Shown here one piece after another: positions 6,108 through 23,865 of a stretch of DNA of 24,000 nucleotides. The notes under the pieces are model-generated. The model had not been told where the DNA came from. It did no database searches and worked only from the letters and a program-made list of their open reading frames with translations. The stretch spans positions 262,035 through 286,034 of the forward strand of contig NZ_JYNO01000004.1 in the NCBI RefSeq assembly GCF_000934745.1, given 5' to 3'. Each line of letters opens with the position of its first letter. The stretch's first letter is position 1. The translations under genes and the position numbers were made by a program. The DNA is from Desulfonatronum thioautotrophicum (GTDB lineage Bacteria; Desulfobacterota; Desulfovibrionia; Desulfovibrionales; Desulfonatronaceae).

Positions 6108-6141
6108 CCATCATCCTCAATTGATCTATGGTGATAGACGT

Positions 6142-7648: not shown

Positions 7649-7650
7649 GC

Positions 7651-9203: not shown

Positions 9204-10313
9204 ATGGTTTCCGTGGATGAGTCACTTTGCTTGATGCCACTCCTTATGACCTCCACTCCTGATGAAGACTACGCCGTTCGGCTCTCGCCCGGCGCTTCCT
9301 TTTCCATTCCATCCACAGCCAAGGTTCTCGACTCCGTCCAGCTGGCGGAATTGGAGCGGACGTTTCGGACCTGGGCAACCGAATCAGCAAGACAGGATGT
9401 TCGGGCGTCCAGACAACGCATTTTGCTGATATTCCTTCTGATTCGACATTCAGGCGCGAAGCTGAACGAGGTCTTGGAACTCAGGTTCGGGGACATTGAT
9501 CTGGAGAAGCGGGTCGTCATTTTGGCCGGCGAGGACAAGGAGAAGGGCAGGACCGTTGAAATTCCGGACGATCTGGCAGAGGAGCTTCGCACGGCCTTGA
9601 GTCAGGGCGCACATGCTCCGGATGACGCCCTGTTTCGAATCGATCCGGCCCATGTCCGGCGCAAGTTCTATGAGCAGGCCGAGGCCTGCGGCCTGCCACG
9701 GGACTTTGGCAATCCCAGTACGTTGCGCCGATCCCGCTCCGTGGAATTGTTGCGCGGCAACCTGCCTCTGCCTGTGGTCCAGCGGCTGCTGGGCCACTCC
9801 ACGCCCAATCTCACGGCCGCGCACCTGGAGGTTTCCGAGGAGGACGTTCATCATGCCGCGAGACAGTACGTGGACCGGGAAAGCAGCAGACGCACCAGCG
9901 CCCGGAACATTTTCTTCGGCAAGATCGTCGAAATGAACAAGGGTGACATCCAGTCCGAGGTGATTCTGCAGACCCTTGGTGACCTACGGATCACCTCCGT
10001 CATCACCAATACCAGCCTCAAGCGGATGCGCCTGAAGATCGGTACCTTTGCCACCGCTGAGATCAAGGCGCCCTGGGTGCTCATCGCCGGATCAGTGGAT
10101 GCGGCAGAGAACAGCGCGGAGAATCGCCTGCCTGGAGTGGTGATGGCGGTCAACGCGGGTAAGGTGAACGTGGAAGTTTTAGTGCGCCTTTCCGAAGGCA
10201 CGGAGATCTGCGCGGTGGTCACCGCTACCGGATTCCATCGTCTGAAATTGAAGGTGAATGATCCGGTTTGGACGCTTTTTGGGGCGTATTCCGTGATTCT
10301 TAATCGAGAGTGA
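9204..10313 (+). CDS. tunR: TunR-family tungstate/molybdate-responsive regulator (degenerate tyrosine-recombinase domain plus 2 x Mop/TOBE)
   Basis: The central region aligns by eye with the XerD catalytic domain (NPSTLRRSRSVELLRGNLPLPVVQRLLGHSTPNLTAAHLEV vs [41 protein letters not shown]), with Tyr replaced by His. The C-terminus has two Mop repeats beginning SARN and SAEN. It sits next to modBAC and the TSUP genes. The start codon is uncertain (9204, 9234 or 9246). Confidence 0.8.
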   Translation: MVSVDESLCLMPLLMTSTPDEDYAVRLSPGASFSIPSTAKVLDSVQLAELERTFRTWATESARQDVRASRQRILLIFLLIRHSGAKLNEVLELRFGDIDLEKRVVILAGEDKEKGRTVEIPDDLAEELRTALSQGAHAPDDALFRIDPAHVRRKFYEQAEACGLPRDFGNPSTLRRSRSVELLRGNLPLPVVQRLLGHSTPNLTAAHLEVSEEDVHHAARQYVDRESSRRTSARNIFFGKIVEMNKGDIQSEVILQTLGDLRITSVITNTSLKRMRLKIGTFATAEIKAPWVLIAGSVDAAENSAENRLPGVVMAVNAGKVNVEVLVRLSEGTEICAVVTATGFHRLKLKVNDPVWTLFGAYSVILNRE

Positions 10314-10415
10314 AGCTCATCACGGAGAGGGTGACGAGTTCTCGAGAGACGGCAGCCTCATGAATTGTCATCAAAAGTGGACTTGAAAAAGAAAAAGATT
10401 TTCAGAAAGAACCCA

Positions 10416-11963
10416 TCACGCCCGCTCCCACTCAAACCCCACAATATTGCGCTCCTCGCGCTCGAACTCCACGCCAACCAGATAGACGGCCTCGGTGTCC
10501 GCCCGGTACTTGTCCGCGTAGCCTTTTCGCCTGATCTGATCCAAGGCGCTACCCGGAGTTTGGTCCAGGTCCACCACCTTGAATTCAAAGATGTAGGCCC
10601 GGTTCTCGAAGAGCACTGTCATGTTCAGGCGACCGTGGCTGGTGGGTTCCTCCGGCCGGGTGTCCAGTCCCAAACCGGCGAAGTAGCAATAGAACACCGA
10701 GCAGTAGTAGCCTTCGTAGGCAGCCAGATTGTTCTTGCGGTACCAGTCGTGGGGAATGGCGGCGAACACGGCGTGGAACACCGCCCGCAGATCATCCACC
10801 TGGCCATGGCGCAGGGCGTTGACCAGGGTGCGCAAGGATTTCTTCATTGCCACCGGTTGCTGGGTGAAGAAGTTCAGCAGATGTTCGGTGAAGCTTTTTT
10901 TGACTTCATGGTTGGGATACCGCAGGCGGTAGAGCACTTCGCCGGGCAGAATCTCCTCCTGGCCGGTGATGGTCAGATAACCGGCCTGGAACAACAAGGT
11001 TTCGGGAAAGATGGACTCCACGTCGAAGCTGCCCAGCAGCTCAGGACCGATCTCGATTCCTTCTATGGCCGGGATGACATACCGTTGGGCCGTGAGCAGG
11101 CGGATCAGGAATTCCGGGGTTGCGGTTTCGAACCAGTAGTTCCGGAAGAGACCCTCTTGGAAGTAATTGAGCAGGCTGTAGGGATTGTAGGTCTTCTCCC
11201 CCAGCCAGGAATACCCGTTGTACCAGCGGCGGATTTCATCGAGATTCCTGCCCCGCAAGTGCTCGACAAAGGTGGCTGTCAGCTCGGATTCGGTCCAGCC
11301 GCAAATCGTGGCAAAGCGGGGGGAAAGGGTGATGTCCGTCAGGTTGTTCAGGCCGGAAAAAAGGCTCACCTTCGAAAACTTGGACACTCCGGTCAGGAAG
11401 ACGAACTTGAGATGGGCGTCGCTGTCCTTGATTACGGAGTAGAAGTTCTTCAAGCCGTTGCGTATCTGGACAGCCTGTTCCGGCTTGGTGATGTTGTCCA
11501 GAATCGGCTTGTCGTACTCGTCCACCAGGATAACCGTTGGGCTGCCGAATTTCTCAGCCGCTTGACGAATCAGATCTTCAAAGCAGTCAATAACGTTGTC
11601 AGGGTTGCGACACTGAATGCCCAATTCGTCTTGGTTGTTGCGCAAAATGGTGACGATCCGTTGATCCAATTCCTCGCGGTTGCGTAATACGCCGCTACCA
11701 AAAGAAATCCGGATCACGGGATGTCGCGTCTCCCAATTCCAACGGTCTTCCAGCCACAACCCGCGAAAGAGCTCCTGGTTGCCTTCGAAGGCCTCCTTGA
11801 GAGTGTCCACGAACAGGGATTTGCCGAAGCGCCGGGGGCGGGAGAGGAAGTAGTAGGAACCGTTTTCCACCAGTTCATGGATAAATCTGGATTTATCCAC
11901 GTAGGTGTAGTCCTCAGCTATAATTTTGCTCAGAGTCGCGATGCCAAGGGGTAGTTTCTTCAT
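10416..11963 (-). CDS. AAA-ATPase-like protein with C-terminal PD-(D/E)XK nuclease-like domain
   Basis: 515 aa. The N-terminus (LPLGIATLSKIIAEDYTYVDKSRFIHELVENGSYYFLSRPRRFGKSL) is the characteristic predicted AAA-ATPase family signature. The C-terminal region (YEGYYCSVFYCYF..FEFKVVD) resembles the associated PD-(D/E)XK module. Confidence 0.85.
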   Translation of the reverse strand: MKKLPLGIATLSKIIAEDYTYVDKSRFIHELVENGSYYFLSRPRRFGKSLFVDTLKEAFEGNQELFRGLWLEDRWNWETRHPVIRISFGSGVLRNREELDQRIVTILRNNQDELGIQCRNPDNVIDCFEDLIRQAAEKFGSPTVILVDEYDKPILDNITKPEQAVQIRNGLKNFYSVIKDSDAHLKFVFLTGVSKFSKVSLFSGLNNLTDITLSPRFATICGWTESELTATFVEHLRGRNLDEIRRWYNGYSWLGEKTYNPYSLLNYFQEGLFRNYWFETATPEFLIRLLTAQRYVIPAIEGIEIGPELLGSFDVESIFPETLLFQAGYLTITGQEEILPGEVLYRLRYPNHEVKKSFTEHLLNFFTQQPVAMKKSLRTLVNALRHGQVDDLRAVFHAVFAAIPHDWYRKNNLAAYEGYYCSVFYCYFAGLGLDTRPEEPTSHGRLNMTVLFENRAYIFEFKVVDLDQTPGSALDQIRRKGYADKYRADTEAVYLVGVEFEREERNIVGFEWERA

Positions 11964-12171: not shown

Positions 12172-12747
12172 TCATGCTGCGTCAAGTCCGCGTAAGCGCT
12201 CGGCGATGTTCCAGGTCCGGCAGTGCCGGACAGTGGCCGTGGGGGTCAGGTGTTCCCAGGGCCTGCCCTGGAGCATAGCCTGGCGCACGTCAGTGCCGCT
12301 GATCCCTTTCTGCTCCGACGGAATCTCCCAGAGGACGTGAGTTCGCAGCCCCATGGCCTGGAACTGGGCGAGCTTGTGGCGGCCCCAGTCGTCGCAGATG
12401 GAGAGCAGAAAGACCGCATCCAGGGGTACGTAGTGGCGGTAAAGATCCGGATGGGTGATGGGTAGGGGGACGATGGTCACCTCCGCATGGCTGACTCCGG
12501 CTTCCAGCAGGACGTCCCGGAGAATCACCAGACGTTCGTAAAAAGTCAGGGGATTGGCCAGGGCGCTGGAACGCTTGCGGTCCGCGTCCACCTCGGCGGT
12601 CAGGCAGGGGTCCGGATTGGTGATGCCCACCACCAGATGGCGACACAGCGCCTTGCCGGCCATGAGGTAGCGTAGGTGGTCATTGTGCGGAACCTGAAAC
12701 CGCCCGTGAATCACGCCGATGTCGTACATATGCTTTCCATGCGGCAT
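12172..12747 (-). CDS. Cytidylyltransferase-fold nucleotidyltransferase (NMNAT-like)
   Basis: 191 aa. Has the HxGH-type motif in GVIHGRFQVPHNDHL. It lies 5 nt downstream of the mutase-like gene. The substrate is unknown. Confidence 0.7.
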   Translation of the reverse strand: MPHGKHMYDIGVIHGRFQVPHNDHLRYLMAGKALCRHLVVGITNPDPCLTAEVDADRKRSSALANPLTFYERLVILRDVLLEAGVSHAEVTIVPLPITHPDLYRHYVPLDAVFLLSICDDWGRHKLAQFQAMGLRTHVLWEIPSEQKGISGTDVRQAMLQGRPWEHLTPTATVRHCRTWNIAERLRGLDAA

Positions 12748-12752
12748 GAGGG

Positions 12753-14183
12753 TTAATGGGCGCGCAGGGGCTGATAGTTCCCAGGCCAGTGCAGGCAGTC
12801 ATCCGGAGTGTCCCGCGTGCCTTCCAGGCGGGCCATGTCCAGGTGATTCAAAATCAGCCGCATCAGCTCCATTCCGCGGACGCAGCCCAGACACCCCTGG
12901 GCCGCGTGAATCTCGTTGAAACGGTCCACCAGATCCCGCCGGACTCCGGCCCCGTGCATGAGCAGAGGAACCGGTTCGCCGGAGTGGATCATGTTCCCGG
13001 AACTGGGGGTGGAATGGTCCGCGGTGATCACCACCAGCAGGGCCGGATGCTGCAGCAGCGTCTGCTCCACAGTGCCCAAGGCCTGGTCCAAGGTCTCGAT
13101 CACCGCTTTCTTGAGCAACGGATCCTTGGCATGGGCCGCCTCGTCCGGAGCCTTGGTATGCAGGTGGATGAAGTCGTATCTTTCGAGATAGCCGGGCACG
13201 GCGGCCAGATCATGGGCAAAGTCGGCCCGCAGGTTTCCGGTGTCTCGCGGTGCTTGCCAATCCATTCCCAGATACCGGGCCAGGCCCCGAAATACCGCGC
13301 CCGATGCGATGCTCAGGCCTCGCAGGCCGAAACGCCGGGTAAACGGCGTGACCGAGCGCATTCTCCCGGCGCGCTGGGTGACCAGACCCGTGACCGGCGG
13401 CAGTCCGGCCTCTTCGCGACGGGCATTCAGCGGGTGTGTTTGCAGGGTATGCCAGACATGCAGGAGATAGGCCCGGAGGACTGAAGCTGTTTTTTGGGCT
13501 GTTTTTTGAGCTGCTTTTTGGGCAGCCTTCCGGGCTCTCTTTTGAGCTGTCTCTTGGGCACACGCCTCTGTACTGTCTCCGGCATCCGACCCATCTGTCC
13601 CATCCGCTTCAGGTTCCCTGGAATGATCCAAGGCCAGGGGCAAAAGATCCGGCAGGAAGCGTCCGGCGCGCATTGGTCCGGTGTCCGTGATGTCCGGCGA
13701 AACGTCCCCGGAAAGGATCAGCACGCCGAAGACGCCCTTGACCGGGACGTATCTGATCCGGATGTCTTCCTGATCCCATGTGGGCATTGCTCCAGCCAGG
13801 GCGGCGACATCCTCCTTGCTGACCTGGGGCACGTCCTGGACCAGAGCCAGGCAGCCGTCCCGCTCCTCCAGGGCCGCGAAATGGGCCAGAACCGCCACCT
13901 CCCTGGAGTCCAGATTGATTCCGGCTCCCAGGGCTTCCAGGGGGCCTCGTCCCGGAAAATCCCGTCGTTCATAGCCGAACATGGCGAAGTGCGCCGTCTC
14001 ACTGGGTAGAGCCTCGCCCAATGTTCCAGCGTGATACAACCCATTGGCCCCGTTGCGGGCCAGACTGTCCAGATGGGGGGTGTGGGCGGCCTGGAGCGGT
14101 GTCTGCCACCCCAAGGTCTGATGGGAGCGGTCTCCCAGCCCATCCAGGACAATCAGCAGGCATTTGTCAGGCATAGCGGACAT
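12753..14183 (-). CDS. ApgM-type cofactor-independent phosphoglycerate mutase / proposed homoserine kinase family (alkaline-phosphatase superfamily)
   Basis: The N-terminus LLIVLDGLGDR..TPLQAAHTPHLDSLA..SETAHFAMFGY..GRGPLEALGAGI closely parallels archaeal ApgM. The C-terminus contains ITADHSTP. A low-complexity insertion is present (..DGTDGSDAGDSTEACAQETAQKRARKAAQKAAQKTAQKTA). Confidence 0.85.
   Translation of the reverse strand: MSAMPDKCLLIVLDGLGDRSHQTLGWQTPLQAAHTPHLDSLARNGANGLYHAGTLGEALPSETAHFAMFGYERRDFPGRGPLEALGAGINLDSREVAVLAHFAALEERDGCLALVQDVPQVSKEDVAALAGAMPTWDQEDIRIRYVPVKGVFGVLILSGDVSPDITDTGPMRAGRFLPDLLPLALDHSREPEADGTDGSDAGDSTEACAQETAQKRARKAAQKAAQKTAQKTASVLRAYLLHVWHTLQTHPLNARREEAGLPPVTGLVTQRAGRMRSVTPFTRRFGLRGLSIASGAVFRGLARYLGMDWQAPRDTGNLRADFAHDLAAVPGYLERYDFIHLHTKAPDEAAHAKDPLLKKAVIETLDQALGTVEQTLLQHPALLVVITADHSTPSSGNMIHSGEPVPLLMHGAGVRRDLVDRFNEIHAAQGCLGCVRGMELMRLILNHLDMARLEGTRDTPDDCLHWPGNYQPLRAH
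13486..13557. repeat. Six tandem 12-bp units inside the mutase-like CDS
   Basis: GCTGTTTTTTGG / GCTGTTTTTTGA / GCTGCTTTTTGG / GCAGCCTTCCGG / GCTCTCTTTTGA / GCTGTCTCTTGG. On the minus strand these encode the (A-Q-K-x)n tract. Confidence 0.8.
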
Positions 14184-14201
14184 ACTCGGCTGGCGGAGTT
14201 G

Positions 14202-15152
14202 TCATCCACCATGGATTTGTTTTGCAACAGGCCCGGTCAGGGAGGACAATGAACGCGGGACAAGGGCGCGATGGGGCAAGGGGGCGATTTGATGCCCGGC
14301 TGGCCGGTCATGCCCGGTCGCGTTGGTCGCGTTGGTCGCGACAAGGGCCTGCCGGACCAGCCTTCTGGTGGCTTCGGCGTGTGCCGGGTTTTGCAGCTCG
14401 ATGGTCCACCAGGTGCATCCTGTCCACGGGAGGCTGGCGATGAGCGGCTCAAATGGGGCGATATCCTCGATGGGATGGTGGCCTTTTTCGTCTTCGCGGC
14501 CGTAGATGTGCAATCCATGAAGACGGTTTTTGAAGAGTTCCACGAAGCCCCGGGCTGAACATCGACCACTGCGCACAGCCTCCGAGCCCAGGGCGTGGCC
14601 CACATCCAGGGTGATCATCGCCTCGGCTGTCTCGGCCCAGTGCAGGATGTTCGCCGGTTCACTGGACGGTCCAAGCCGCAGATTCTCCAGACAGACCACG
14701 ATCCCAAGATCCCTGCCATGCTCCACCAGCCGGGCCAGGTTCTCCATCAGCGTCGGCTCATGCACCGGCAAAGCCGGATCAAGGCCGGTGTGCACCGTGA
14801 CCACGGGGTCACCCTGTCCGTCCATGGCCCGCAGGGTGCGCAGATGCGCCTCCAGGGATCGCCCAGCCCGAACCGGATCGGCATGGCCCAGCTCATGCTC
14901 AAAATACCTGGTATGAAACCGGACACGCAAACCAGCGCGGACAAAGGGACGAACCATTTCCGGCAGCTGGTCCAGTCGGTCCGGGTCCGGTGAGAACTCC
15001 ACCGCCTCGGCCTGCTCCGTCACCCAGTGCAATCTGGAAGCCGGGTCTGATGCGGACGCGGTGAAGGCCAATGTCGGAAAATGATTCAGGGGGCATCCAT
15101 GCATGTCGATGGCGGGGACGAGGCTTTTTTGACGGTCAATTTTAAGGCCCAT
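14202..15152 (-). CDS. Xylose-isomerase-like TIM-barrel protein (sugar-phosphate isomerase/epimerase family)
   Basis: Family-like segments are present: VTVHTG, VCLENL, ITLDVGHA, LHIYGRED..GHHP. The start is uncertain (ATG 15152, 15104 or 15257, none with a strong RBS). The C-terminal tail contains an ATNATNAT repeat. Confidence 0.7.
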   Translation of the reverse strand: MGLKIDRQKSLVPAIDMHGCPLNHFPTLAFTASASDPASRLHWVTEQAEAVEFSPDPDRLDQLPEMVRPFVRAGLRVRFHTRYFEHELGHADPVRAGRSLEAHLRTLRAMDGQGDPVVTVHTGLDPALPVHEPTLMENLARLVEHGRDLGIVVCLENLRLGPSSEPANILHWAETAEAMITLDVGHALGSEAVRSGRCSARGFVELFKNRLHGLHIYGREDEKGHHPIEDIAPFEPLIASLPWTGCTWWTIELQNPAHAEATRRLVRQALVATNATNATGHDRPAGHQIAPLPHRALVPRSLSSLTGPVAKQIHGG

Positions 15153-15343: not shown

Positions 15344-15631
15344 ATGTCGCGAGAAACACCTGGAAACGCTCCCTCCGCGGGCGCTCATCCCCGGGAATGG
15401 GAATTTGACGAAGAATTCGACGGCGGAGAGGAGACATGCGGACGGGTGATCATCAACCTCTACACCTACCTGCTGCCCATGCCTCCGGGAACCAGGGTGA
15501 TGCTCATTTCCCAGGATCCGGCCGCGCCCATCGAGTTTCCGGCCTGGTGCCGCATGACCAGGAATACCCTTCTGGACATGCGCCACCCCTATTATCTCAT
15601 TGAATACAAACCCGAACAGAAAAAGGAGTGA
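15344..15631 (+). CDS. TusA/SirA-like sulfur-carrier protein (variant Cys motif)
   Basis: Start at the ATG at 15344, after GGGAGAGG. The segment FDGGEETCGRVIINLYTYLLPMPPGTRVMLISQDPAAPIEFPAWCRMT parallels E. coli TusA [45 protein letters not shown]. The motif is CGRV instead of CPxP. Confidence 0.7.
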   Translation: MSRETPGNAPSAGAHPREWEFDEEFDGGEETCGRVIINLYTYLLPMPPGTRVMLISQDPAAPIEFPAWCRMTRNTLLDMRHPYYLIEYKPEQKKE

Positions 15632-15635
15632 TTCC

Positions 15636-16001
15636 ATGGCAAACAGATTCTGCGTAACCATCAGCCACTGCCGCACCGACGGCGACAAGGCCACCCTGGG
15701 CTTCGTTGTGGCCAATGCCGCCCAAGGCAGCGAAAAGGAAACCATGATCTTTCTGAGCACGGACGGCGTGTACTGCGCGGTCAAGGGAGAGGCGGAAAAG
15801 ATCGATGAAGGCGCACCCTTTGCCCCGCTCAAGGAACTGATCACCAAGTTCGTCAATGCCGGTGGGAAAATCTATGTCTGCACACCCTGTCTGAAAAAAC
15901 GCGGCCTGTCCGAGGCCGATTTGATCGAGGGCTCGGTCCCGGCCGGCGGTGCGGCGTTGGTGGAATGGCTGTCCGCGGATCCGGCCTGCGTGGCGTATTG
16001 A
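15636..16001 (+). CDS. DsrE/DsrF-like family protein with VCTPC motif
   Basis: ATG at 15636, preceded by AAGGAG (15623-15628). 121 aa. DsrE-fold pattern (FVVANAAQG..MIFLSTDGV..GGKIYVCTPCLKKRGL). Confidence 0.7.
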   Translation: MANRFCVTISHCRTDGDKATLGFVVANAAQGSEKETMIFLSTDGVYCAVKGEAEKIDEGAPFAPLKELITKFVNAGGKIYVCTPCLKKRGLSEADLIEGSVPAGGAALVEWLSADPACVAY

Positions 16002-16014
16002 GCCGGAAGGTAGA

Positions 16015-16098
16015 GTTCAGAAGTCAGAATTCAGAATTCAGAATTCAGGAGTCAGAAGTCAGAAGACAGAATACAGGAGACTGGAGATAGGAGACAGG
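16015..16098. repeat. About twelve tandem degenerate heptanucleotide units (A-N-T/A-C-A-G-A/G)
   Basis: GTTCAGA AGTCAGA ATTCAGA ATTCAGA ATTCAGG AGTCAGA AGTCAGA AGACAGA ATACAGG AGACTGG AGATAGG AGACAGG. The array is intergenic and starts 14 nt after the DsrE-like stop. Confidence 0.9.
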
Positions 16099-16230
16099 GG
16101 ATGGAATGCGCTGGCGTTTCGTTGTCTGTGGGGGGCTGGGGGGGAGTGGGTGCGGCGCTGGGTGCTATTCCACGCGAAGCGCTCGTCCTCTCCGGCCTTT
16201 CATCAAGAATTCCATGGAGGAGTGATTTGC

Positions 16231-16998
16231 ATGTCTGCAATCGATGACCAGGTTGACCTGGCCGGGCTTCAGCCCGCGCGGATCTTTGATGGCGGCGATC
16301 TGGACTGCGGGTCCGGGTTGATTCTCCTGATCCGGGAAAACATGCTCCAGACAGGGGTTGGGGAGATTCTGGAAATGCGCAGTCGGGAGCCCACGGTCAA
16401 CGACGACCTGCCGCCCTGGTGCCGGATGGCCGGGCACGTGTATCTGGGCCGTTTGGAGGGACCGGGATATGCCCGCTATTTCCTGCGCCGGGGGGAGCCC
16501 AAGGCTGATCAGCCCACTCCTTCCGACGACCAGGCTTTGGCCGAGGACAAGAAAAAGGCCACTGAGTACGAGTGGCGGATGCGGATTCGGTCCACGGGCA
16601 ACCTGAAGAGTACGGTCTATTGTCGGAACTTTTCCTGGGACTTGGGGCAGCCGGCCAGCTTCAAGGACAAGGATGCCCACCCCTGCGCCGTGGAAGCCTT
16701 GCTGGGTGCCCTGGGTGGGGCGTTGAGCAGCGGTTTTGCCACGGATTGCGCCCGGGAGGGGCTGGAGGTGGATGATGTGGAGATCACGGTCCGCGGCAGG
16801 CTGCGCAACATTCTGGCGCACATGGGCCTGGAAGAGGGTGATCCGTCTTTCGCGGGCATTGAGGTGAAATGCTTCGCTTCGACCATGGACGACGAAGCCA
16901 AGGTTCGTGCGGTCTGGAGCCAAACCGTGGCCCGCTCGCCCATTGCGGCCACGCTGGCCAAGGCGGTAGATTTGAACATCAAATTCGCGGTGGTGTGA
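16231..16998 (+). CDS. TusA-like / OsmC-like fusion protein
   Basis: ATG at 16231, after GGAGGAG. The N-terminal module (FDGGDLDCGSGLILLIRENMLQTGVGEILEMRSREPTVNDDLPPWCRMAG) is paralogous to the gene at 15344. The C-terminal 150 aa have the OsmC/Ohr-fold pattern (HPCAVEALLGALGGALSSGF ... VARSPIAATL). Confidence 0.7.
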   Translation: MSAIDDQVDLAGLQPARIFDGGDLDCGSGLILLIRENMLQTGVGEILEMRSREPTVNDDLPPWCRMAGHVYLGRLEGPGYARYFLRRGEPKADQPTPSDDQALAEDKKKATEYEWRMRIRSTGNLKSTVYCRNFSWDLGQPASFKDKDAHPCAVEALLGALGGALSSGFATDCAREGLEVDDVEITVRGRLRNILAHMGLEEGDPSFAGIEVKCFASTMDDEAKVRAVWSQTVARSPIAATLAKAVDLNIKFAVV

Positions 16999-17000
16999 TC

Positions 17001-18188
17001 ATGTTTACGACAACCCAGGTCGGCAGCTGGCCCCGGTCCCAAACCATGCTCAAGGCCTTGCGCGACCGTCGCCTGGAGCGGATGTCCCAGGCCGAGTTCA
17101 ACGCCGTGGCCGACGAGGAGGTCCGACGTACCGTGCGCATCCAGGAGGAGGCCGGCCTGGACATTGTGGTGGACGGTGAACATCGCCGGGATAACTTCTA
17201 CTCCTTTATCACGGAAAAGGTGTCCGGAACCAGGCTGATGAGTCTGGCCGAGATGCTGGACGAGGTGGAGGACAAGTCCGGGTTCGAGGAGTTGTTGAGT
17301 ACGCTGGACGTACCGGCCTCGGCCATCCGCAACCCCACCTGCGTGGGGCGGCTGGAGCGGCGCGAGCCCCTGGCCGTGGATGATTTGCGGTTCGTGAAGC
17401 AGCTTACGGACAAGCCGGTGAAGATCACCCTGCCCGGGCCCTACCTGCTCAGCCGGTCCATGTGGGTACCCAATTATACCAAGAGCGCCTACCGCGACCA
17501 AGGCGAGCTGGGCGACGACGTTGTGCGCATCCTGAGGGACGAACTGCTGGAACTGGCCGAGGCCGGTTGTGAATTCGTGCAGTTCGACGAGCCGGTGCTC
17601 ACGGAAGTGGTCATGTCCGCGGAGTGCGGCCGGCGAACCTTCATGTGAGCGACTCTGGCCACCCGCCGGGATGTGGGTGTTGAACTGGAGTACGCCGCGG
17701 AACTGATCAATCGGGTCATCGACGGCATTGCCGCCCCGCCAAGGGGACCGCGCATCGGTCTGCATATTTGCCGGGGCAACTGGAGCACCCGGGAGGATGT
17801 CCTGCTTACCGGAGATTATACCCCCTTGCTGCCGGCCTTGACCCGGATGCGGGTGCATCAATTCGTGTTGGAATATGCCACGCCGCGGGCCGGAGAGATC
17901 GCCGTGGTCGGGGAAGCCCTGTCCGGGGCCGTTCCCGGGACGGACCGCCCGCGGGAACTGGGTCTGGGCGTGGTCAACCCCCGGACCACGGAAGCCGAAT
18001 CCCCCGAGGAGATCGTGGCCAAGGCCGAGCTGGCCCTGCGCCACTACCGCCCGGAACAAGTGTTCCTGAACACGGATTGCGGCTTCGGCTGCTTCGCCAA
18101 CCGCTGCGTGAACGTGGAGGAGGTGGCCACGGACAAGATCCGGAACATTGTTCTGGCGGCCAGGATGCTCCGGGAGCGGCATGGCTGA
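17001..18188 (+). CDS. MetE-like (cobalamin-independent methionine synthase catalytic-domain family) Zn methyltransferase with in-frame TGA at 17646-17648 (candidate Sec216; alternatively a pseudogene)
   Basis: Two same-frame ORFs (..17648 and 17673..) are separated only by the TGA and 8 sense codons. Upstream of the TGA are the motifs GSWPR, VVDGEHRR and VQFDEPVL. Downstream are Zn-site-like LHICRGN, LEYATP and NTDCGFG. The start ATG at 17001 lies 2 nt after the preceding stop. Confidence 0.6.
17652..17691 (+). promoter_or_regulatory. SECIS-like bipartite RNA hairpin immediately 3' of the in-frame UGA
   Basis: Lower stem 17652-17658 pairs with 17685-17691 (7 bp including 2 G-U). There is an asymmetric internal loop. 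Upper stem 17660-17666 pairs with 17673-17679 (7 bp including 1 G-U). The apical loop is CGGGAU. The hairpin starts 4 nt after the UGA and the loop starts 18 nt after it. Confidence 0.4.
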
Positions 18189-19377
18189 ACCGTTTCCGCG
18201 GCGGCCTGAGCTGGAGCGGACGGCACGGGAGGTCAATGCCGGATGTACCGGTTGCCGGATCTGTGTCCGCCAGTGCGCCTTTCTGAAAATGAATGCGCCT
18301 CCCGGGCGGATAGCCCAGGCCCTGCTGACCGGGGCCGGTCGAACCGACCCGTTTGCCTGCAGTCTGTGCGGCCTGTGCGGGGCGCTTTGTCCGGAAATGG
18401 TCAAACCCGGAAATATGTTCCTGGAAATGCGCCGAGAAGCGGTGGACCAAGGCCGTGTGGACTGGAAACGGTACAAGGCGATTCTGAATTATGAACGGCG
18501 CGGGCATTCCGCGCTATTCAGCTGGTATCCAACCAGGTCGAGCAAAAACGTCTTTTTCCCCGGCTGCACCCTGCCGGGGACTCGGCCGCGGATCACCTGG
18601 CAGTTTTTCGAGGCATTGCGATCCCTGTATCCGGACATGGCCATGGTCCTGGATTGCTGCCACAAGCCGTCCCATGATCTGGGGCGGCAGTCCTTTTTTC
18701 TTGAACGGTTTCAGGGCATCCAAGACCGCCTGCTGGCCCTGGGCGTAAAGCGGCTCTTCGTGGCCTGTCCCAACTGCCATAAAGTTTTCAAGCAATACGG
18801 AGGCGGGCAGGAGGTCGTCACCGTCTATGAGGCCCTGGCCCAAGGCCGGTATCACGTCCAGGGCCAGGAAGCGGTGCACCAGGATTTCGCAATCTCTCCG
18901 GATACATCCGTGCAGGTCGCCATCCATGATCCGTGCCCGTTACGGGACGAGCCGAAAACCCATGAGGCCGTTCGAGCCCTGCTCTCCACCCGCGGGTTTG
19001 CCCTTCGCGAAATGAAGAACAGCCGGACCCGCACCCTGTGCTGCGGCGAGGGAGGGTCCGTCGGCTTCCACACCCCGGCCCTGGCCACGACCTGGGCCAA
19101 AAAGCGGCGCGCCCAGAGCCAGGTCAGGGGCCAGTCCCAGGGCCATAGTCGGGATCAGTCCCAAGGCCAGAACCGTTCCCAGGCCCAGGCCGACCGGGTT
19201 GTCACCTACTGCGCCGGTTGCACCGCCTGCCTCAATCGCTTCATGCCCACCAGCCATCTGGGTGATCTGCTTTTTGATCCGAATAGCACCCTGGCCGGAA
19301 AGAACAGACCAGCCAAGGCTCCCATCACCTATCTAAACCGGTTGCTGTTCAAGCGGCGGCTGAAAAGATTTTCCTGA
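18181..19377 (+). CDS. HdrD/GlpC-like Fe-S oxidoreductase (2 x [4Fe-4S] ferredoxin motifs plus 2 x CCG domains)
   Basis: Ferredoxin-type motifs CTGCRICVRQC and CSLCGLCGALCP are present. CCG-type motifs are present (FFPGCTLPG, LDCCHKP, CPNCHKVF; IHDPCPLRD, LCCGEGGS, YCAGCTACL). The ATG at 18181 overlaps the MetE-like stop (ATGGCTGA). Contains an SQ/GQ-rich insertion. Confidence 0.85.
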   Translation: MAEPFPRRPELERTAREVNAGCTGCRICVRQCAFLKMNAPPGRIAQALLTGAGRTDPFACSLCGLCGALCPEMVKPGNMFLEMRREAVDQGRVDWKRYKAILNYERRGHSALFSWYPTRSSKNVFFPGCTLPGTRPRITWQFFEALRSLYPDMAMVLDCCHKPSHDLGRQSFFLERFQGIQDRLLALGVKRLFVACPNCHKVFKQYGGGQEVVTVYEALAQGRYHVQGQEAVHQDFAISPDTSVQVAIHDPCPLRDEPKTHEAVRALLSTRGFALREMKNSRTRTLCCGEGGSVGFHTPALATTWAKKRRAQSQVRGQSQGHSRDQSQGQNRSQAQADRVVTYCAGCTACLNRFMPTSHLGDLLFDPNSTLAGKNRPAKAPITYLNRLLFKRRLKRFS

Positions 19378-19655
19378 ACAGGCATTTCTTCTCTGCAACC
19401 CTGGGGTACCGCGGACGGAACCACCACGTTCCGCTCTCTAACAGAACAAAATACTTATCATACTCTATTTTTACCCAAAGTTTTCAGAATCAACTTATCG
19501 GTATTTTCTATTGTTTGGCGCGTAAAGAATATATCCTGCCTATTTGATTTTATTTTCTGGTTGCTGCTACTAGACCCAAACTCAAATTAACCTCAAGGCT
19601 CAACGGTTCATGGTGGACCGCCGCGGGCCAAGAGGTCCATCACAAGGAGAGCAGC

Positions 19656-20201
19656 ATGCTGAAGAATCAAGCGCAGGTACAGTTGGAAAACACGAAAAAT
19701 CCGAGCGAACAGGACCAATCCAAGGAGTCGGCCATGACCCGCGGCGATTTTCTCAAGCTTGCCGGGGCCGGGGGGTTGGGAATGGCGGCCATGATGGGCA
19801 TGAGCAGTCCGGTCATGGCCGGAGAGGGCAAGAAAGGCAAATACCTTTTCGTCGTCAGTGCCGGTTCCAAGGATCCGGACAAGGCCATGCTGGCCTTGCT
19901 GCTGGCTGACGTGGTGCAGAAGCAGGAACTGGGAGACGTGCACATCTATCTGTGGGGTGACGGGGCGGAACTCTCCAAGATCGGACGCCCGGAACGCATT
20001 ACTTCGGCCAGTTTTCACCGACTGGGCAATGCGCTTGGCATGCTGGAACGGCTGCAGCGCAACGGGGCGCAGATTGGAGTGTGTCCGCCCTGCGCGGAGT
20101 GGGTCGGGGCCGTGGACGATCAGAAGTATGAGTGGGCGAACAGAGAAGACGGTGGTGTGCTCTTGCGCAGCATGCAGGAATCCTGGACAGCCTGGCTCTA
20201 G
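19656..20201 (+). CDS. Exported DsrE-like protein with CPPC motif and degenerate Tat-like signal
   Basis: Signal region MTRGDFLKLAGAGGLGMAAMMGMSSPVMA-GE, followed by a DsrE-fold pattern (KYLFVVSAGSKDP..HIYLWGDGA..IGVCPPCAEW). Both ATG 19656 and ATG 19734 have AAGGAG-type RBSs, so the start is uncertain. Confidence 0.7.
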   Translation: MLKNQAQVQLENTKNPSEQDQSKESAMTRGDFLKLAGAGGLGMAAMMGMSSPVMAGEGKKGKYLFVVSAGSKDPDKAMLALLLADVVQKQELGDVHIYLWGDGAELSKIGRPERITSASFHRLGNALGMLERLQRNGAQIGVCPPCAEWVGAVDDQKYEWANREDGGVLLRSMQESWTAWL

Positions 20202-20270
20202 CTTTTCCGGCTGTATACGGTGATTCGTTCGTCTTGAACCGCTTTATTTCAGAAAAACATGGAGATGCAT

Positions 20271-20588
20271 ATGCGACTGATCAAATCGATTCTGCTCACA
20301 ATATTGACCCTTTTCGTTCTCTCCACGGCGCTGCCATTGGCCGCGACGGCGGAGAAGACCCCGGAGGTCAATACTCGGGGTGCCTGCCTGAACGTCAGGG
20401 AGTTTGTGGCCCTGATCCAGCATGAAAGCCGGCGCATGGAAAGCGGCAACATCCTGCGGCTGATCGCCGACATTCCCAACGAGGTCGAGGCCCGGGAAGC
20501 CATTGAGACCGTCGGTTATCCCATCATGGAAGAGACTCGGGACGATGATCGTGACTTTATAAACTTTCTGCTTGAGGTCCGGAAATGA
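20271..20588 (+). CDS. Small exported hypothetical protein (single Cys)
   Basis: The ATG at 20271 lies 6 nt after GGAG. Signal peptide MRLIKSILLTILTLFVLSTALPLAATA-EK. The stop overlaps the next start (ATGA at 20585-20588). I recognise no family. Confidence 0.55.
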   Translation: MRLIKSILLTILTLFVLSTALPLAATAEKTPEVNTRGACLNVREFVALIQHESRRMESGNILRLIADIPNEVEAREAIETVGYPIMEETRDDDRDFINFLLEVRK

Positions 20589-22312
20589 GCCGAGCATGGC
20601 AAGCGGTGCGTCCGCTGCTGTTGCCTCTTTTGGTGTTCATCGTCGTGTTCGTCGGGCATATGCTTTTCTATAAGATTGTATCCCAGAATTCTAGCCCGAT
20701 CTGGTGGCGACTGTATGTTCTGACCCAGACCTACATGATCAGCTTTTCCCTGGCCCTGGCCTTTGCTTTTGGAGCCTACGCCCTGGGCAAGGCCAGAGGT
20801 CAGTCAGGAAAGGCGGTGGCCGGCAGCGCGGGAGTCGCACTGCTGGTCTGGTTCACCAGCGCCTGTGGCGCGCCGCTGATCGCCGTGGGCCTCGGGTTGG
20901 TGGGCGTCGGTTTTGGGTCTGAGGCTCTGCCGCCCTGGGTTACAGCGGTGCTGACCATCTGCTTCATTTCCTTTGGAGTTTATTGGCTGCATCGCAAAGG
21001 GGGGGCCTGTGCCACGGCCTGCGCGGCCAAGGCTGGGGAGAATGCCGGTTTATTCCGTGAAATCGGGGTGGACCTGGACAAGTTCGGCGCGCAGCAATGC
21101 GTCACCGGCGAACTCTATGAGCGGACCTTCGCGGCCCAGCAAAATCGCCCGGCGGGCATGGCCTACTTCGATGAAATGGCCGGAGACATCTACGGTGCCC
21201 GGATGCGCGAGATTATCGCGGCCAAGAAGGAAGGCCGCGTCGTGGTGGGCAACTTTTGTGTTTTCGTCCCCGAAGAACTCACCCTGGCCGTAGACGGCAT
21301 CTCCGTGGGCCTGTGCGCGGGCTCTCAAGCTCCGGTTTCGGATGCGGAAAAGGTTCTGCCTCGAAACATCTGTCCCCTGGTCAAGTCAGCGTATGGCTAC
21401 GCCCTGACCAAGTCATCGCCCTATTTTCAGGTTGTGGATTTTGTCTGTGGTGAAACAACCTGCGACGCGAAGAAGAAGACCTGGGAGCTGATGGACCGGG
21501 AGATCCCCACCCATGTAATGGAAATTCCCCAGATGAAACGGGAGCGGGATCGTGATCTCTGGCTGGCGGAGGTCAAGGAGTTCAAGGCCAAGCTGGAACA
21601 GCAAAGCGGCAAGACCATTACACCCGAGGCTCTGTCCAAGGCCGTGGCGGTAATGGACGCCAAGCGAGGCTCCCTGCAACGCCTCAATGCCCTGCGTCAC
21701 CACCGTCCCTCCCCCATCAGCGGCCGGGACGCCTTGTTGGTGGAACAGATCGCCTTTTACGACGATCCGGTCCGGTTTACGGAAAAGGTCAACGTGCTTT
21801 GCGACGAACTGGACAAGCGGGTTCAGGACGGCGTCTTCGCCGCACCGTCCCAGTCTCGGCGGATCATGATTTCCGGTTCACCCATGGCCCTGCCCAATTG
21901 GAAGGTGCACAATATCGTGGAGGGTGCCGGGGCCGTGGTGGTCAACGAGGAGTCCTGTGTCGGCACCCGGTACTTCAGCCAGAATGTCGCCCAGAGCGAT
22001 GAGGACATGGATAGTATGTTGTTGGCTCTGACCGAGCGGTACATGCAGATAAATTGCGCCTGCTTCACGCCCAATGAGGGGCGAATCGAGCAGATCATCC
22101 GAGAGTACCGCGACTCCAGAGCGGACGGGCTGATTCATTACAGCCTGCAATTCTGTCACACCTATCTGATCGAGGCAGTGCGGATCAAGGAGGCCTGCGC
22201 CAAGGAGAGCATCCCTTTTCTGGCCGTGGAAACGGATTATTCCACCGAGGACACGGGTCAGTTGCAAACCAGGATCGAAGCGTTCCTGGAACAGATTGGA
22301 GGTCAACGATGA
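20585..22312 (+). CDS. Membrane-anchored HgdB/BcrC/BadD-family (2-hydroxyacyl-CoA dehydratase D-component / double-cubane-cluster-type) protein
   Basis: 575 aa. Residues 1-140 form four predicted TM helices: basic N-terminus, KARGQSGK loop, HRKGG after TM4. The remainder carries the HGD-D family Cys pattern (GNFCVFVPEE, GLCAGSQ, NICPLVKS, FVCGETTCDAKKK, EESCVGTR, INCACF, LQFCHTY). Confidence 0.85.
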   Translation: MSRAWQAVRPLLLPLLVFIVVFVGHMLFYKIVSQNSSPIWWRLYVLTQTYMISFSLALAFAFGAYALGKARGQSGKAVAGSAGVALLVWFTSACGAPLIAVGLGLVGVGFGSEALPPWVTAVLTICFISFGVYWLHRKGGACATACAAKAGENAGLFREIGVDLDKFGAQQCVTGELYERTFAAQQNRPAGMAYFDEMAGDIYGARMREIIAAKKEGRVVVGNFCVFVPEELTLAVDGISVGLCAGSQAPVSDAEKVLPRNICPLVKSAYGYALTKSSPYFQVVDFVCGETTCDAKKKTWELMDREIPTHVMEIPQMKRERDRDLWLAEVKEFKAKLEQQSGKTITPEALSKAVAVMDAKRGSLQRLNALRHHRPSPISGRDALLVEQIAFYDDPVRFTEKVNVLCDELDKRVQDGVFAAPSQSRRIMISGSPMALPNWKVHNIVEGAGAVVVNEESCVGTRYFSQNVAQSDEDMDSMLLALTERYMQINCACFTPNEGRIEQIIREYRDSRADGLIHYSLQFCHTYLIEAVRIKEACAKESIPFLAVETDYSTEDTGQLQTRIEAFLEQIGGQR

Positions 22313-22866
22313 AGGTGAAGCATCTTGCAATATTGGCGGCTCTGACCATGCTTTTGGGAGCCGGAGCCTCTCCGGCTTTCTCCGGCCAGAGCAACTCGCC
22401 TTTTCCGGTGGCCGACGGCTGCCTGACGGATGAGGATCTTCTTCCGGACGACAGCGTGGCCCTGGAGGGAGTTGAGATCGGCCGGATATTCTGGGACGTG
22501 ACCATCGCCGACCCCAGCCTGCTGGCCGGACGTCTCGGCGTGATTGATCAGACCTACCGGGACATGGTCCGCCAAGGAGTGACACCGGAAATGGTCCTGG
22601 CCTTTCGAGGCGGGTCAGTCCGTCTGTTGGTTGCCGACCATAGCAGGCTGCCTGAAGAAACTCGTGAAGGCGCCCAAAGCGTCCAGCAGCGGCTTGAACG
22701 GTTGATGGAACTGCCTGGAGTACGGCTGGAAGCCTGTTATATCGCCATGCGCCGTGTTCCCCTGGAACCGCAAAACCTGATGCCAGGGCTGCACACCGTG
22801 AACAATACCTTCCTCTCGGCCATGGGGTACGGCCAGAGGGGGTTCATCTCCATTCCCATTCACTAA
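22309..22866 (+). CDS. Exported DsrE-related protein (COG1416-like)
   Basis: Signal peptide MKVKHLAILAALTMLLGAGASPAFS-GQ. The mature part fits the COG1416 pattern (IFWDVT..; VRLEACYIAMRR; TFLSAMGYGQRGFISIP). Its start overlaps the upstream stop (ATGA). Confidence 0.6.
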   Translation: MKVKHLAILAALTMLLGAGASPAFSGQSNSPFPVADGCLTDEDLLPDDSVALEGVEIGRIFWDVTIADPSLLAGRLGVIDQTYRDMVRQGVTPEMVLAFRGGSVRLLVADHSRLPEETREGAQSVQQRLERLMELPGVRLEACYIAMRRVPLEPQNLMPGLHTVNNTFLSAMGYGQRGFISIPIH

Positions 22867-23024
22867 CTGTTGGGGAATATTGGCCCACCAACTCGAACAC
22901 CGTGACCACGGGGCGGTCGCCAGATAGTATGGATCGCCCCGTTTTCATGGAGATGTTTTTCAGCATTCACCCTCCATTTCTGTTCAATAACCGAGAAAAT
23001 CATGAACGAGCAAAAGGCGTCCAG

Positions 23025-23807
23025 ATGATCGCAAGCCCTGGAAATGTTGCTGGAATCGACATTGGTTCCCGGTCCATCGAGCTGGTTGTTCTGAGTCATG
23101 CCGGGAGGGTCGAGCATCAGGTCAGGGTTCCGACCACCTTTGATCCCTTGCGCCAATGCCGCGAGATCCTTGAGGGGGTGGCGGTGGAATGGGTCACGGC
23201 CACGGGATATGGCCGCAAGCTGTTCGTGGAGAGCGGTATCGCGGAGGCGTGCGGGGCGATTACCGAGATTCAGGCCTATGCCCTGGGTACGGCGGGATTG
23301 TTCCCCGAGGCGCGCACCGTCCTGGACATTGGCGGCCAGGATACCAAGGTCATTTCCCTCGGATCTGGGGGCCGGGTGCTGAAGTTCGAGATGAACGACC
23401 GCTGTGCCGCGGGAACGGGCAAATTTCTGGAGATCATGGCCACGTCGCTGCAGATCCCCATCGAGGAGTTTGGCGATTTCTCCCTGGGTTCGACGAAGCA
23501 GGTGCGCATCAGCAGCATGTGTACCGTATTTGCCGAGTCCGAGGCCACGTCCCTGATGGGCCGGGGCGAGCGACCGGAAAATATCGCCATGGGCCTGCAT
23601 TTGGCCATCGTGGAGCGCACCATGGCCATGCTCAACCGGGTCGGCCTGGAGCATCCTTTATGCTTTGCCGGAGGCGTGGCCCACAACCGTTGCGTGGTCA
23701 AGCTGCTGCAGGAGCGGATTGAGGAGACGATCATCGTTCCGGAACGACCGGACATGGTCGGCGCACTGGGTGCGGCCATGCACGGCGCACTGCGGCGGAA
23801 TACGTAA
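23025..23807 (+). CDS. HgdC/BcrAD-type ATP-dependent activase (CoA-substrate-specific enzyme activase family)
   Basis: ASKHA-fold motifs GIDIGSRSIE, ATGYGR, EIQAYALG and DIGGQDTK are present. Cluster-bridging region MNDRCAAGTGKFLE. Also SSMCTVFAESEATSL. 260 aa from the ATG at 23025. Confidence 0.9.
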   Translation: MIASPGNVAGIDIGSRSIELVVLSHAGRVEHQVRVPTTFDPLRQCREILEGVAVEWVTATGYGRKLFVESGIAEACGAITEIQAYALGTAGLFPEARTVLDIGGQDTKVISLGSGGRVLKFEMNDRCAAGTGKFLEIMATSLQIPIEEFGDFSLGSTKQVRISSMCTVFAESEATSLMGRGERPENIAMGLHLAIVERTMAMLNRVGLEHPLCFAGGVAHNRCVVKLLQERIEETIIVPERPDMVGALGAAMHGALRRNT

Positions 23808-23810
23808 AAA

Positions 23811-23834
23811 AGGCGCAATGTTGCCATTGCGCCT
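23811..23834. terminator. Bidirectional rho-independent-type terminator hairpin
   Basis: Perfect 10-bp stem AGGCGCAATG / CATTGCGCCT with loop TTGC. It is flanked by AAAAA (5') and CACATTTT (3'). It lies between convergent genes. Confidence 0.7.
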
Positions 23835-23865
23835 CACATTTTCAACGTATTGCCGGACTGTTTCC

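Follow-up and report, generated by a model that had tools for sequence, protein, structure and literature searches.

A double-cubane reductase fused to an unannotated membrane domain and set among predicted exported thiol proteins in Desulfonatronum thioautotrophicum

A fusion gene at the center of a five-gene cluster

Positions 19656 to 23807 of the 24,000-nucleotide (nt) stretch of DNA analyzed here (the window), which comes from the soda-lake sulfate reducer Desulfonatronum thioautotrophicum, hold five genes, all on the plus strand. Two of them encode predicted exported proteins of 181 and 105 amino acids (aa); a 575-aa fusion of a four-transmembrane (4-TM) domain to a double-cubane cluster protein (DCCP) follows, and then come a third predicted exported protein, of 185 aa, and an ATP-dependent activase (Table 1). 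DCCPs were reportedly discovered in 2018 as nitrogenase-like, ATP-driven reductases, and to our knowledge their natural substrates are still not known. What is new at this locus is that a known reductase/activase pair stands in an undescribed membrane-coupled architecture with an unannotated membrane family.

All five open reading frames (ORFs) proposed in an initial annotation of this DNA were recovered from the window sequence at the same coordinates and on the same strand. The translational coupling that it had proposed for the fusion gene can be read directly, as the gene overlaps both of its neighbors through ATGA sequences at 20585 and 22309. RefSeq names the fusion protein (WP_208599010.1) a "double-cubane-cluster-containing anaerobic reductase," the 181-aa protein (WP_045220128.1) a "DsrE family protein," and the activase (WP_045220475.1) an "acyl-CoA dehydratase activase"; "hypothetical protein" is also used in the cluster. 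The loci with which the cluster was compared carry L-numbers (e.g., L006 and L031), L001 being the window's own contig including DNA beyond the window.

The fusion protein and the activase form a DCCP/DCCP-R pair

The catalytic part of the fusion is a full-length DCCP. Residues 207 to 571 match the NF040772 (double_cubane) model with 478.9 bits against a cut-off of 350, Pfam HGD-D matches the protein at E=2e-120, and residues 152 to 571 span the full length of the solved DCCP 6ENO/7YYL (E=1e-134). Every cysteine at a 6ENO cluster position is matched (C225, C244, C263, C293, C458, C491, and C524), and these residues are invariant in 19 homologs. The HgdC-type activase that had been placed at 23025 is likewise a full-length BcrAD/HgdC ATPase, with 208.1 bits against a TIGR00241 cut-off of 125.4 and a PF01869 match at E=4e-46. 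It is the presumed electron donor to the DCCP domain.

Membership in the CoA-ester dehydratases or benzoyl-CoA reductases was considered and rejected, as the fusion scores 99.5 bits against 700 for HadC, 85.9 against 453.8 for BzdN, and 83.8 against 421 for BcrC. No second HGD-D subunit adjoins the fusion gene among the window ORFs. Because the equivalog scores fall far under their cut-offs and a partner subunit is lacking, the 575-aa fusion and its activase are, judged by sequence, a genuine DCCP/DCCP-R pair rather than a dehydratase. The pair resembles the DCCP and DCCP-R of Carboxydothermus hydrogenoformans (6ENO, 7YYL, NF040772) in full-length catalytic homology, cluster cysteines, and an adjoining HgdC-type ATPase. 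Known DCCPs, however, are soluble proteins of about 420 aa, whereas the protein described here bears a 150-residue N-terminal 4-TM domain with a conserved cysteine and is set between exported thiol proteins.

Ranked after the fusions themselves come DCCPs that are soluble, about 430 aa long, and 60 to 65% identical; they belong to Nitrospirota, Desulfobulbaceae, and Desulfocapsa. A second, soluble DCCP (389 aa; NF040772, 491 bits) is encoded outside the window, 7.8 kb downstream of the fusion gene (L001 17819-18988), where it comes after a sugar-type ABC transporter. No activase accompanies it, and the one at 23025-23807 may therefore serve both DCCPs. A side observation concerns an unannotated protein of about 165 to 171 aa, with weak RelE/ParE-like matches only, which recurs beside DCCP/activase pairs, soluble ones included (L001 19008-19523, L006 14453-14953, and L003 [Desulfocapsa] 10235-10732, as well as L011, L020, L021, L031, and L032). 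It may be a third component of DCCP systems, unrecognized so far.

The membrane domain carries an invariant cysteine at a break in TM3

Hydropathy places four hydrophobic segments within residues 1 to 140 (nt 20585-21004). Lysines and arginines number nine on the predicted cytoplasmic side and two on the opposite side, and this positive-inside bias would put the N terminus, the loop between TM2 and TM3, and the DCCP domain on the cytoplasmic side. An AlphaFold2 model built from 51 aligned, diverse family members has four TM helices at a mean predicted local distance difference test (pLDDT) score of 79.5, a short periplasmic amphipathic helix, and a TM3 that is broken at A93-C94. A full-length run with 19 sequences had modeled the DCCP region well (pLDDT mostly 80 to 98) and the TM part poorly (31 to 63). 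Hydropathy, charge bias, the AlphaFold2 model, and the NF040772 and HGD-D scores thus agree with the initial annotation that an HGD-D domain is fused to an N-terminal 4-TM domain.

Two segments of the TM domain are strongly conserved in the fusion clade, KIVSQNSSPIWW and VWFTSAC(94)GAP. Cys94, C146, and the SACGAP motif are invariant there, and a cytoplasmic C142-x3-C146-AAK element lies right after TM4, 6 to 10 residues ahead of the DCCP homology. Pfam and NCBIfam scans at E<=5 returned nothing usable for the TM domain, including no match to YedE (PF04143), and neither a profile search of the PDB nor Foldseek against the PDB found a solved relative.

The fusion recurs across phyla with the same upstream genes

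Full-length fusions of 568 to 581 aa occur in about 26 independent clusters, with 67 to 90% identity over the whole length, which rules out a mis-joined gene. Scanning 185,579 species genomes for the TM domain yielded eight loci, all in metagenome-assembled genomes, from Nitrospirota/Nitrospiraceae, Desulfobacteraceae, Desulfobulbaceae, Desulfonatronovibrio, and one probably mis-binned "Bacteroidetes" contig; a scan of metagenomes yielded 13 more. We mapped the conservation of the partner genes by tblastn across all loci. Every locus with sequence preserved on the upstream side has the DsrE-like and 105-aa genes directly ahead of the fusion, frequently with stop codons that overlap the next start, and the activase is downstream in all loci with downstream DNA. 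Across phyla, the fusion gene keeps its place in the order of genes and its ATGA coupling to those for exported proteins.

The third exported gene behaves differently. The initial annotation had treated all of the exported neighbors as belonging with the fusion, which holds for the two upstream genes and fails for the 185-aa gene: it sits between the DCCP and activase genes in the nearest clade (at least 76% identity; L007, L018/L019, and L033) and is missing from the sister clade (67 to 71% identity), which has instead a protein that fuses an ArsS half to an ArsM-like half. This ArsS-ArsM gene lies inside the operon, in the gap between DCCP and activase, in L006, L031, and L032 and within 8 kb in L004, L010, L020, and L021, and is thus found in seven of the eight sister-clade loci with enough flanking sequence. 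In L031, the ArsS half scores 365.9 bits against a TIGR04167 cut-off of 300; further genes of that locus encode a MerC-family protein and a MIP channel. In sister-clade loci, YedF (202 bits against a cut-off of 110) is encoded a few kilobases from the system, and the other neighbors there include rhodaneses, YdjY, a GT2 glycosyltransferase, and a DedA(VTT)-HdrD-like fusion.

Separately, a further gene set recurs with the system or with the 185-aa protein in L006, L028 (Desulfurivibrio alkaliphilus), L031, and the window (12172-15152, minus strand). It comprises an apgM-like phosphomutase, PHP or AP-endonuclease-2 phosphoesterases, a rhodanese, a DedA(VTT)-Fer4-CCG fusion, YdjY, GT2, and phosphate- or phosphonate-type ABC transporters, and it may represent an anaerobic pathway for organoarsenicals of the arsenosugar or arsenolipid kind.

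Three predicted exported proteins resemble sulfur carriers

The 181-aa protein had been described as an exported DsrE-like CPPC protein, and each part of that description finds a counterpart in the data: a marginal Pfam DsrE match (23.1 bits against 22.7), an invariant G[VA]CPPC motif in a 13-sequence alignment, and a predicted Tat-like signal. It is a paralog of a cytoplasmic 121-aa CxxC DsrE-like protein encoded 4 kb upstream (hhalign, 94.6%). The family signal reads S-R-[GNSAK]-D-F-L-K...A-x-A (TRGDFLK...VMA|G in the window) and matches TIGR01409 below threshold. As an observation in its own right, these signal peptides (window 19656-19830 and 12 homologs) combine xFLK, a Gly/Ala-rich h-region, AxA, and a single arginine, a conserved and unusual departure from the twin-arginine rule.

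The 105-aa protein keeps its earlier description as a single-cysteine protein with a predicted signal peptide, here of the Sec type, and its identity can be refined, on weak matches, to TusA/ExtJ-like. Its family has an invariant NT[RL]GAC-L motif (NTRGAC(39)L in the window) and a pattern of conserved residues that reads like TusA. ExtJ is a small protein of a Geobacter selenite- and tellurite-reduction cluster.

For the 185-aa protein, the initial annotation had proposed a COG1416/DsrE-like partner. The protein does have a signal peptide, and although it lacks a Pfam match of its own, 16 of 25 family members match DsrE (PF02635) weakly (best E=6.8e-5); as a partner, it is conserved with the fusion in the nearest clade only. 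The family has one invariant cysteine (EAC143YIAMRR), and its named members come from the haloalkaliphiles Desulfurivibrio, Geoalkalibacter, and Thioalkalivibrio.

Two further relationships were tried and rejected. The 181-aa and TusA-like proteins are not a split YedF (hhalign probabilities of 0.3% and 0.8%, the former for the 181-aa protein against YedF), and the 185-aa protein is not a paralog of the 181-aa protein (0.2%).

Stand-alone relatives have an in-frame TGA in place of Cys94

Two soda-lake contigs encode the membrane protein as a stand-alone gene of 148 codons (L012 1926-2372 and L013 9962-10408), flanked by the same three exported genes and without a DCCP. In both, the Cys94 column is occupied by an in-frame TGA (VWFASA-TGA-G[IL]PLL), and the reading frame past it is conserved for about 54 codons, to a GGCAAK tail. 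Database entries end at the TGA codon or start just after it, so that the proteins are held only as fragments (P0124, P0145, and P0152). A conserved GGCC-GUG-GGCC hairpin lies 13 to 14 nt downstream of the TGA; its folding energy is no better than that of shuffled sequences and gives no support, and Rfam has no selenocysteine insertion sequence (SECIS) match at this hairpin. The alignment nevertheless suggests that the TGA probably encodes selenocysteine, which would make these relatives a candidate new family of membrane selenoproteins.

A cysteine/selenocysteine pair, as is probable at position 94, marks a chemically active residue and so argues against a passive anchor. In such a scheme, the TM domain would do no more than hold or position an ordinary DCCP close to a transporter or to the respiratory chain, and the exported proteins would be independent of it. 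The closeness of the DCCP domain to soluble DCCPs (60 to 65% identity) and the lack of a recognizable transporter fold fit that picture. A passive anchor, however, would not keep an invariant mid-membrane cysteine or selenocysteine together with a cytoplasmic cysteine pair, nor does it sit well with a gene order and ATGA coupling conserved across phyla or with the co-occurrence of membrane and exported proteins where no DCCP is present. We regard a mere tether as very unlikely.

A second gene with an in-frame TGA lies in the window itself. This Meth_synt_2 gene (17001-18188, plus strand), which resembles cobalamin-independent methionine synthase, has one in-frame TGA at 17646-17648 (RRTFM-TGA-ATLATRRD). 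The TGA recurs in the Desulfonatronovibrio contig L013, with both halves of the protein about 82% identical, and it is followed by a hairpin after 14 nt. Gene callers split the gene into products of 215 and 171 aa, and a 2026 review of the selenoproteome has no methionine-synthase entry. The gene probably encodes a selenoprotein that has gone unrecognized so far. With it and the stand-alone membrane protein, two probable new selenoproteins come to light.

The wider membrane family lies among metal(loid)-handling genes

A profile search of 1.84 billion representatives returned 74 clusters of the TM-domain family, and a 90%-identity database holds at least 1042, all unnamed. In the wider family, the TM3 consensus is GCFLxGCCGSPML, and a Cys-rich cytoplasmic tail follows TM4. 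GCCGSPML resembles the CC motif of MerT; in the window protein, AC stands in place of CC. Further members are fusions, with MtrA and the pterin-binding DUF4346 or with OsmC.

The sampled neighborhoods are of the metal(loid)-handling type. The gene order in L034 is ArsR, an exported CGxxxC protein, the TM protein, an HMA P1B-ATPase, ArsD, and ArsA; in L036, it is an LMWP ArsC-like gene, ArsR, MtrA-PterinBD, an exported Cys protein, the TM protein, and an RND pump. On the Pelobacter plasmid pPRO1, a family member sits on a Tn3-borne island beside a heavy-metal P-type ATPase, and L026, which looks archaeal, has DsrC and a TusA-MtrA fusion. The family (at least 1042 clusters) appears to be a general module for the docking of metal(loid)-transforming enzymes and for import. 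We also note that the window encodes a TusA-OsmC fusion (16231-16998, plus strand) and that OsmC is fused straight to the TM family in another lineage (P0177), which hints that the membrane module has alternative clients on the cytoplasmic side, namely thiol enzymes of the OsmC type.

A possible route for a thiophilic cargo

Our preferred reading, to which we give even chances, is that the five genes encode machinery, integrated in the membrane, that would "capture, import, reduce" a thiophilic element and would be Mer-like in function and built from other parts. In the periplasm, the TusA/ExtJ-like single-Cys protein and the CPPC DsrE-like protein, joined in this clade by the second DsrE-like protein, would bind the cargo on cysteine sulfur. 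The carriers would hand it to Cys94 at the TM3 break, the position of a probable selenocysteine in the stand-alone relatives and of CC in the wider family. From there, it would pass to the cytoplasmic C142/C146 pair, just ahead of the fused double-cubane domain, whose [8Fe-9S] cluster would reduce it with very low-potential electrons from the ATP-hydrolyzing activase.

The same parts could instead carry electrons outward, as in DsbD/CcdA. The DCCP and activase would then reduce C142/C146, and the equivalents would cross the membrane via Cys94, perhaps through an intersubunit disulfide in a DCCP dimer, after which the CPPC DsrE-like and TusA-like proteins would reduce periplasmic polysulfide, Se(0), or thio-arsenate. 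The CPPC of the exported DsrE-like protein does look like a redox dithiol, and the 2026 selenoproteome review lists a UxxC selenoprotein form of DsrE-like proteins. There are cysteines on both membrane faces. DCCP itself is a homodimer in 6ENO/7YYL. Thiol-disulfide exchange, however, takes place at about -250 mV, where thioredoxin would be enough and an ATP-driven [8Fe-9S] reductase excessive. Inward transfer of cargo is preferred over outward electrons because TusA and DsrE families are atom carriers and not disulfide reductases; because cytoplasmic paralogs of the carriers are encoded nearby and are the sole cytoplasmic partners in DCCP-less loci, where the stand-alone membrane proteins keep their periplasmic partners; and because the other fusions of the family are to methyl-transfer modules, such as methyltransferase-type MtrA domains, that supply no electrons. 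An outward relay is therefore unlikely.

As to what an import-and-reduce system would carry, arsenic (as As(III) or thio-arsenic) would be our first candidate, followed by selenium and then sulfane sulfur. Arsenic is favored by the ArsS-ArsM, MIP, and ArsR/ArsD/ArsA contexts, selenium by YedF, the resemblance to ExtJ, the probable use of selenocysteine, and the published co-occurrence of NF040772 with SelD, and sulfane sulfur by the carrier families, the hosts, and the likeness to the YTD cluster (YedE-TusA-DsrE-CHP). The presence of ArsS-ArsM in place of the 185-aa gene in the sister clade shifts the cargo toward arsenic or selenium and away from sulfur or polysulfide. The Se(0)/HSe- and As(III)/AsH3 potentials are far more demanding than S(0)/HS-, which would explain an ATP-driven reductase; this is an argument, not a result.

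The sulfur alternative deserves separate weighing. Here, the cluster would be a YTD-like relay for the disproportionation of thiosulfate, sulfite, or sulfur, in which imported sulfane sulfur or polysulfide is processed in the cytoplasm and the arsenic and selenium neighbors are incidental. Its parts list (membrane protein, TusA-like, DsrE-like, and hypothetical proteins) mirrors the YTD cluster, which has been proposed as a marker of disproportionation (PMC12998232). The hosts, Desulfobacterota and Nitrospirota, count disproportionators among them, and among soluble DCCPs, those of Desulfocapsa sulfexigens and Desulfurivibrionaceae are closest. The 185-aa family occurs mostly in sulfur bacteria that are haloalkaliphilic, and polysulfide is stable where they live; rhodaneses and an SQR-like gene lie nearby. 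On the other hand, there is no YedE homolog and the membrane domain is unrelated, the wider membrane family is found in metal-resistance islands rather than sulfur operons, and ArsS-ArsM is inserted within the operon in three loci. By textbook potentials, S(0)/HS- reduction needs no ATP-energized electrons. We consider a sulfur relay improbable.

Several observations weigh against the import and reduction of a metalloid. In the membrane domain, the 51-sequence model has its lowest confidence (pLDDT 53 to 56) exactly around Cys94, and the fused clade has a single membrane cysteine, so that a relay would need a dimer or partner thiols. The alignment of family TM3-TM4 with MerT TM1-TM2, in which hhalign superposes the CC motifs, is sub-threshold at a probability of 32%, with an unverified MerT sequence as the reference. 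The DCCP domain is 60 to 65% identical to soluble DCCPs that work without a membrane part, DCCPs clearly also work on cytoplasmic substrates, and, given the soluble DCCP nearby, the fusion's reductase may act on a cytoplasmic pool. Localization and transport are predictions from sequence, including the export of all three small proteins, and the Tat-like signal of the 181-aa family has one arginine in all 13 aligned sequences. TusA (PF01206) is matched below threshold, at best with 17.4 bits against 28.6, by the L006 ortholog of the 105-aa protein, and this family aligns with Escherichia coli TusA at an hhalign probability of 62.7% over 32 columns, with the cysteine offset by three residues; ExtJ is matched weakly, also below threshold, by 7 of the 13 members. 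The 185-aa gene is not kept with the fusion outside the nearest clade and is also present in the stand-alone module. The ArsM halves of the ArsS-ArsM fusions score under the NCBIfam cut-offs, and no ars gene lies within 10 kb of the window's own system.

The initial annotation had suggested periplasmic carriers that exchange a chalcogen or metalloid with a membrane-bound reductase. That proposal, still hypothetical, has been strengthened by the Cys94/TGA equivalence, the shared partners of the stand-alone protein, and the metal(loid) neighborhoods; plain sulfur or polysulfide, among the candidates offered, is now less favored. A bolder version of import and reduction, possible although doubtful, would make the fusion a "MerA for metalloids" and the first DCCP to which a physiological job can be assigned. 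Bound to cysteine or selenocysteine, As(III) or selenium would travel through a MerT-like domain straight to the [8Fe-9S] cluster, for an ATP-energized reduction beyond the reach of ordinary cellular reductants. Candidate products would be arsine or As(0), selenide, or a reduced methyl-arsenic substrate for the co-operonic ArsM-ArsS. If true, the anaerobic cycle of arsenic or selenium would gain a new branch, one that depends on ATP.

Relation to known systems

The operon would work like the Mer, selenocysteine-assisted organometallic (SAO), or YedE/YedF and YTD systems and is a member of none. With MerP-MerT-MerA, it shares a predicted periplasmic Cys protein, a small membrane protein with a mid-membrane cysteine, a cytoplasmic Cys pair, and a cytoplasmic reductase. 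It differs in having four TM helices rather than three, TusA/DsrE-like carriers rather than HMA folds, and an ATP-driven Fe-S enzyme rather than an NADPH flavoenzyme. No Pfam or NCBIfam match to MerT (PF02411), MerP, or MerA was found for the cluster proteins at E<=5, and the resemblance to MerT is suggestive only.

Haft and Gwadz (bioRxiv 10.1101/2022.07.06.499078) reported that the occurrence of NF040772 DCCPs follows that of SelD almost perfectly and that these DCCPs cluster with a system for organometallic transport. Their preprint ties soluble DCCPs to selenium and organometallic metabolism and mentions neither a membrane fusion nor this TM family. The SAO system resembles the present one in thiophilic import via transport proteins lined with cysteine or selenocysteine plus a CxxC DsrE-like protein, in its coupling to NF040772 DCCPs, and in its association with selenium. 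SAO, however, has an ABC transporter, a MerB-like lyase, and an ArsP-like exporter, and its DCCP is not fused to the transporter. Membership in SAO was ruled out, as no Sao model (SaoA/B/P/L/E/C/T/D) is among the NCBIfam matches of the cluster proteins.

YTD and the YedE/YedF modules, which take up selenium or thiosulfate, likewise have a Cys-bearing membrane protein that works with TusA-like and DsrE-like proteins, whereas here the membrane part lacks PF04143 and is not YedE, and signal peptides are present on the carriers. Neither YTD nor YedE/YedF has a fused reductase. Membership in DsbD/CcdA was also rejected: the domain has four TM helices, one TM cysteine, and no Pfam match, against two TM cysteines in a pseudo-symmetric core of six to eight helices.

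The initial annotation could match the arrangement to no described system, and we found no description of a membrane-coupled DCCP in the searchable literature, in which only the Haft and Gwadz preprint is relevant. Because that preprint already linked DCCPs to selenium and organometallic metabolism, the chemical theme is not wholly new. A DCCP wired to a membrane domain lined with cysteine or selenocysteine and to exported thiol carriers narrows the search for its substrate to a few thiophilic elements, and ArsS-ArsM within the sister-clade operon narrows it further. Through this architecture, the physiological chemistry of double-cubane enzymes can be approached directly, in a cultured host, D. 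thioautotrophicum ASO4-1. Should the cargo be arsenic or selenium, the fusion would fill an enzymatic gap in the anaerobic metalloid cycle, at steps of very low potential, candidates being the formation of arsine or selenide and the reduction of methylated or thiolated arsenic.

Cluster boundaries, companion operon, and remainder of the window

A promoter is presumed upstream of the cluster on the basis of the gap and its base composition only, and a promoter scan of the region matched no sigma-70 consensus. At the other end, the hairpin and T-run directly after the activase stop codon are likely a bidirectional terminator that closes the cluster. Upstream lies a cytoplasmic companion operon (15344-19377), whose genes also adjoin the stand-alone membrane module in L013.

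TABLE 1 Features of the five-gene cluster and its companion operon (window coordinates)
Feature	Position	Strand	Basis or detail
Presumed promoter region of the five-gene cluster, 278-bp AT-rich intergenic	19378-19655	.	Sequence reading
Predicted exported DsrE-like protein, 181 aa	19656-20201	+	CPPC codons 20082-20093; alternative start M27 at 19734
Predicted exported TusA/ExtJ-like protein, 105 aa	20271-20588 (ORF opens 20259)	+	Sec signal; Cys39 codon 20385-20387; stop overlaps next start (ATGA)
4-TM/DCCP fusion gene, 575 aa	20585-22312	+	RefSeq WP_208599010.1
N-terminal 4-TM domain, residues 1-151	20585-21037	+	Cys94 codon 20864-20866; C142/C146 at 21008-21022
Double-cubane [8Fe-9S] reductase domain, residues 152-575, predicted cytoplasmic	21038-22312	+	NF040772, 6ENO alignment
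Predicted exported divergent DsrE-like (COG1416-type) protein, 185 aa	22309-22866	+	Invariant Cys143; ATGA start overlaps DCCP stop
HgdC/BcrAD-type ATP-dependent activase, 260 aa	23025-23807	+	TIGR00241, PF01869; RefSeq WP_045220475.1
GC-rich hairpin and T-run directly after activase stop	23810-23835	-	Pattern match only; regional count not above shuffled expectation
TusA-like protein, 95 aa, companion operon	15344-15631	+	Pfam/NCBIfam
CxxC DsrE-like protein, 121 aa, companion operon	15636-16001	+	Pfam/NCBIfam
TusA-OsmC fusion, companion operon	16231-16998	+	Pfam/NCBIfam
MetE-like gene with in-frame TGA, companion operon	17001-18188	+	Pfam/NCBIfam
HdrD-like Fer4/CCG protein, companion operon	18181-19377	+	Pfam/NCBIfam

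Elsewhere (107-1177, minus strand; 6082-8409 and 9204-10313, plus strand), the window encodes an XdhC-family maturation factor for aldehyde oxidoreductase (388.8 bits), a molybdate ABC transporter, modA/B/C, and a protein that joins a tyrosine-recombinase-like region to two Mop/ModE molybdate-binding domains. Except for this odd fusion, these genes are ordinary molybdenum housekeeping.

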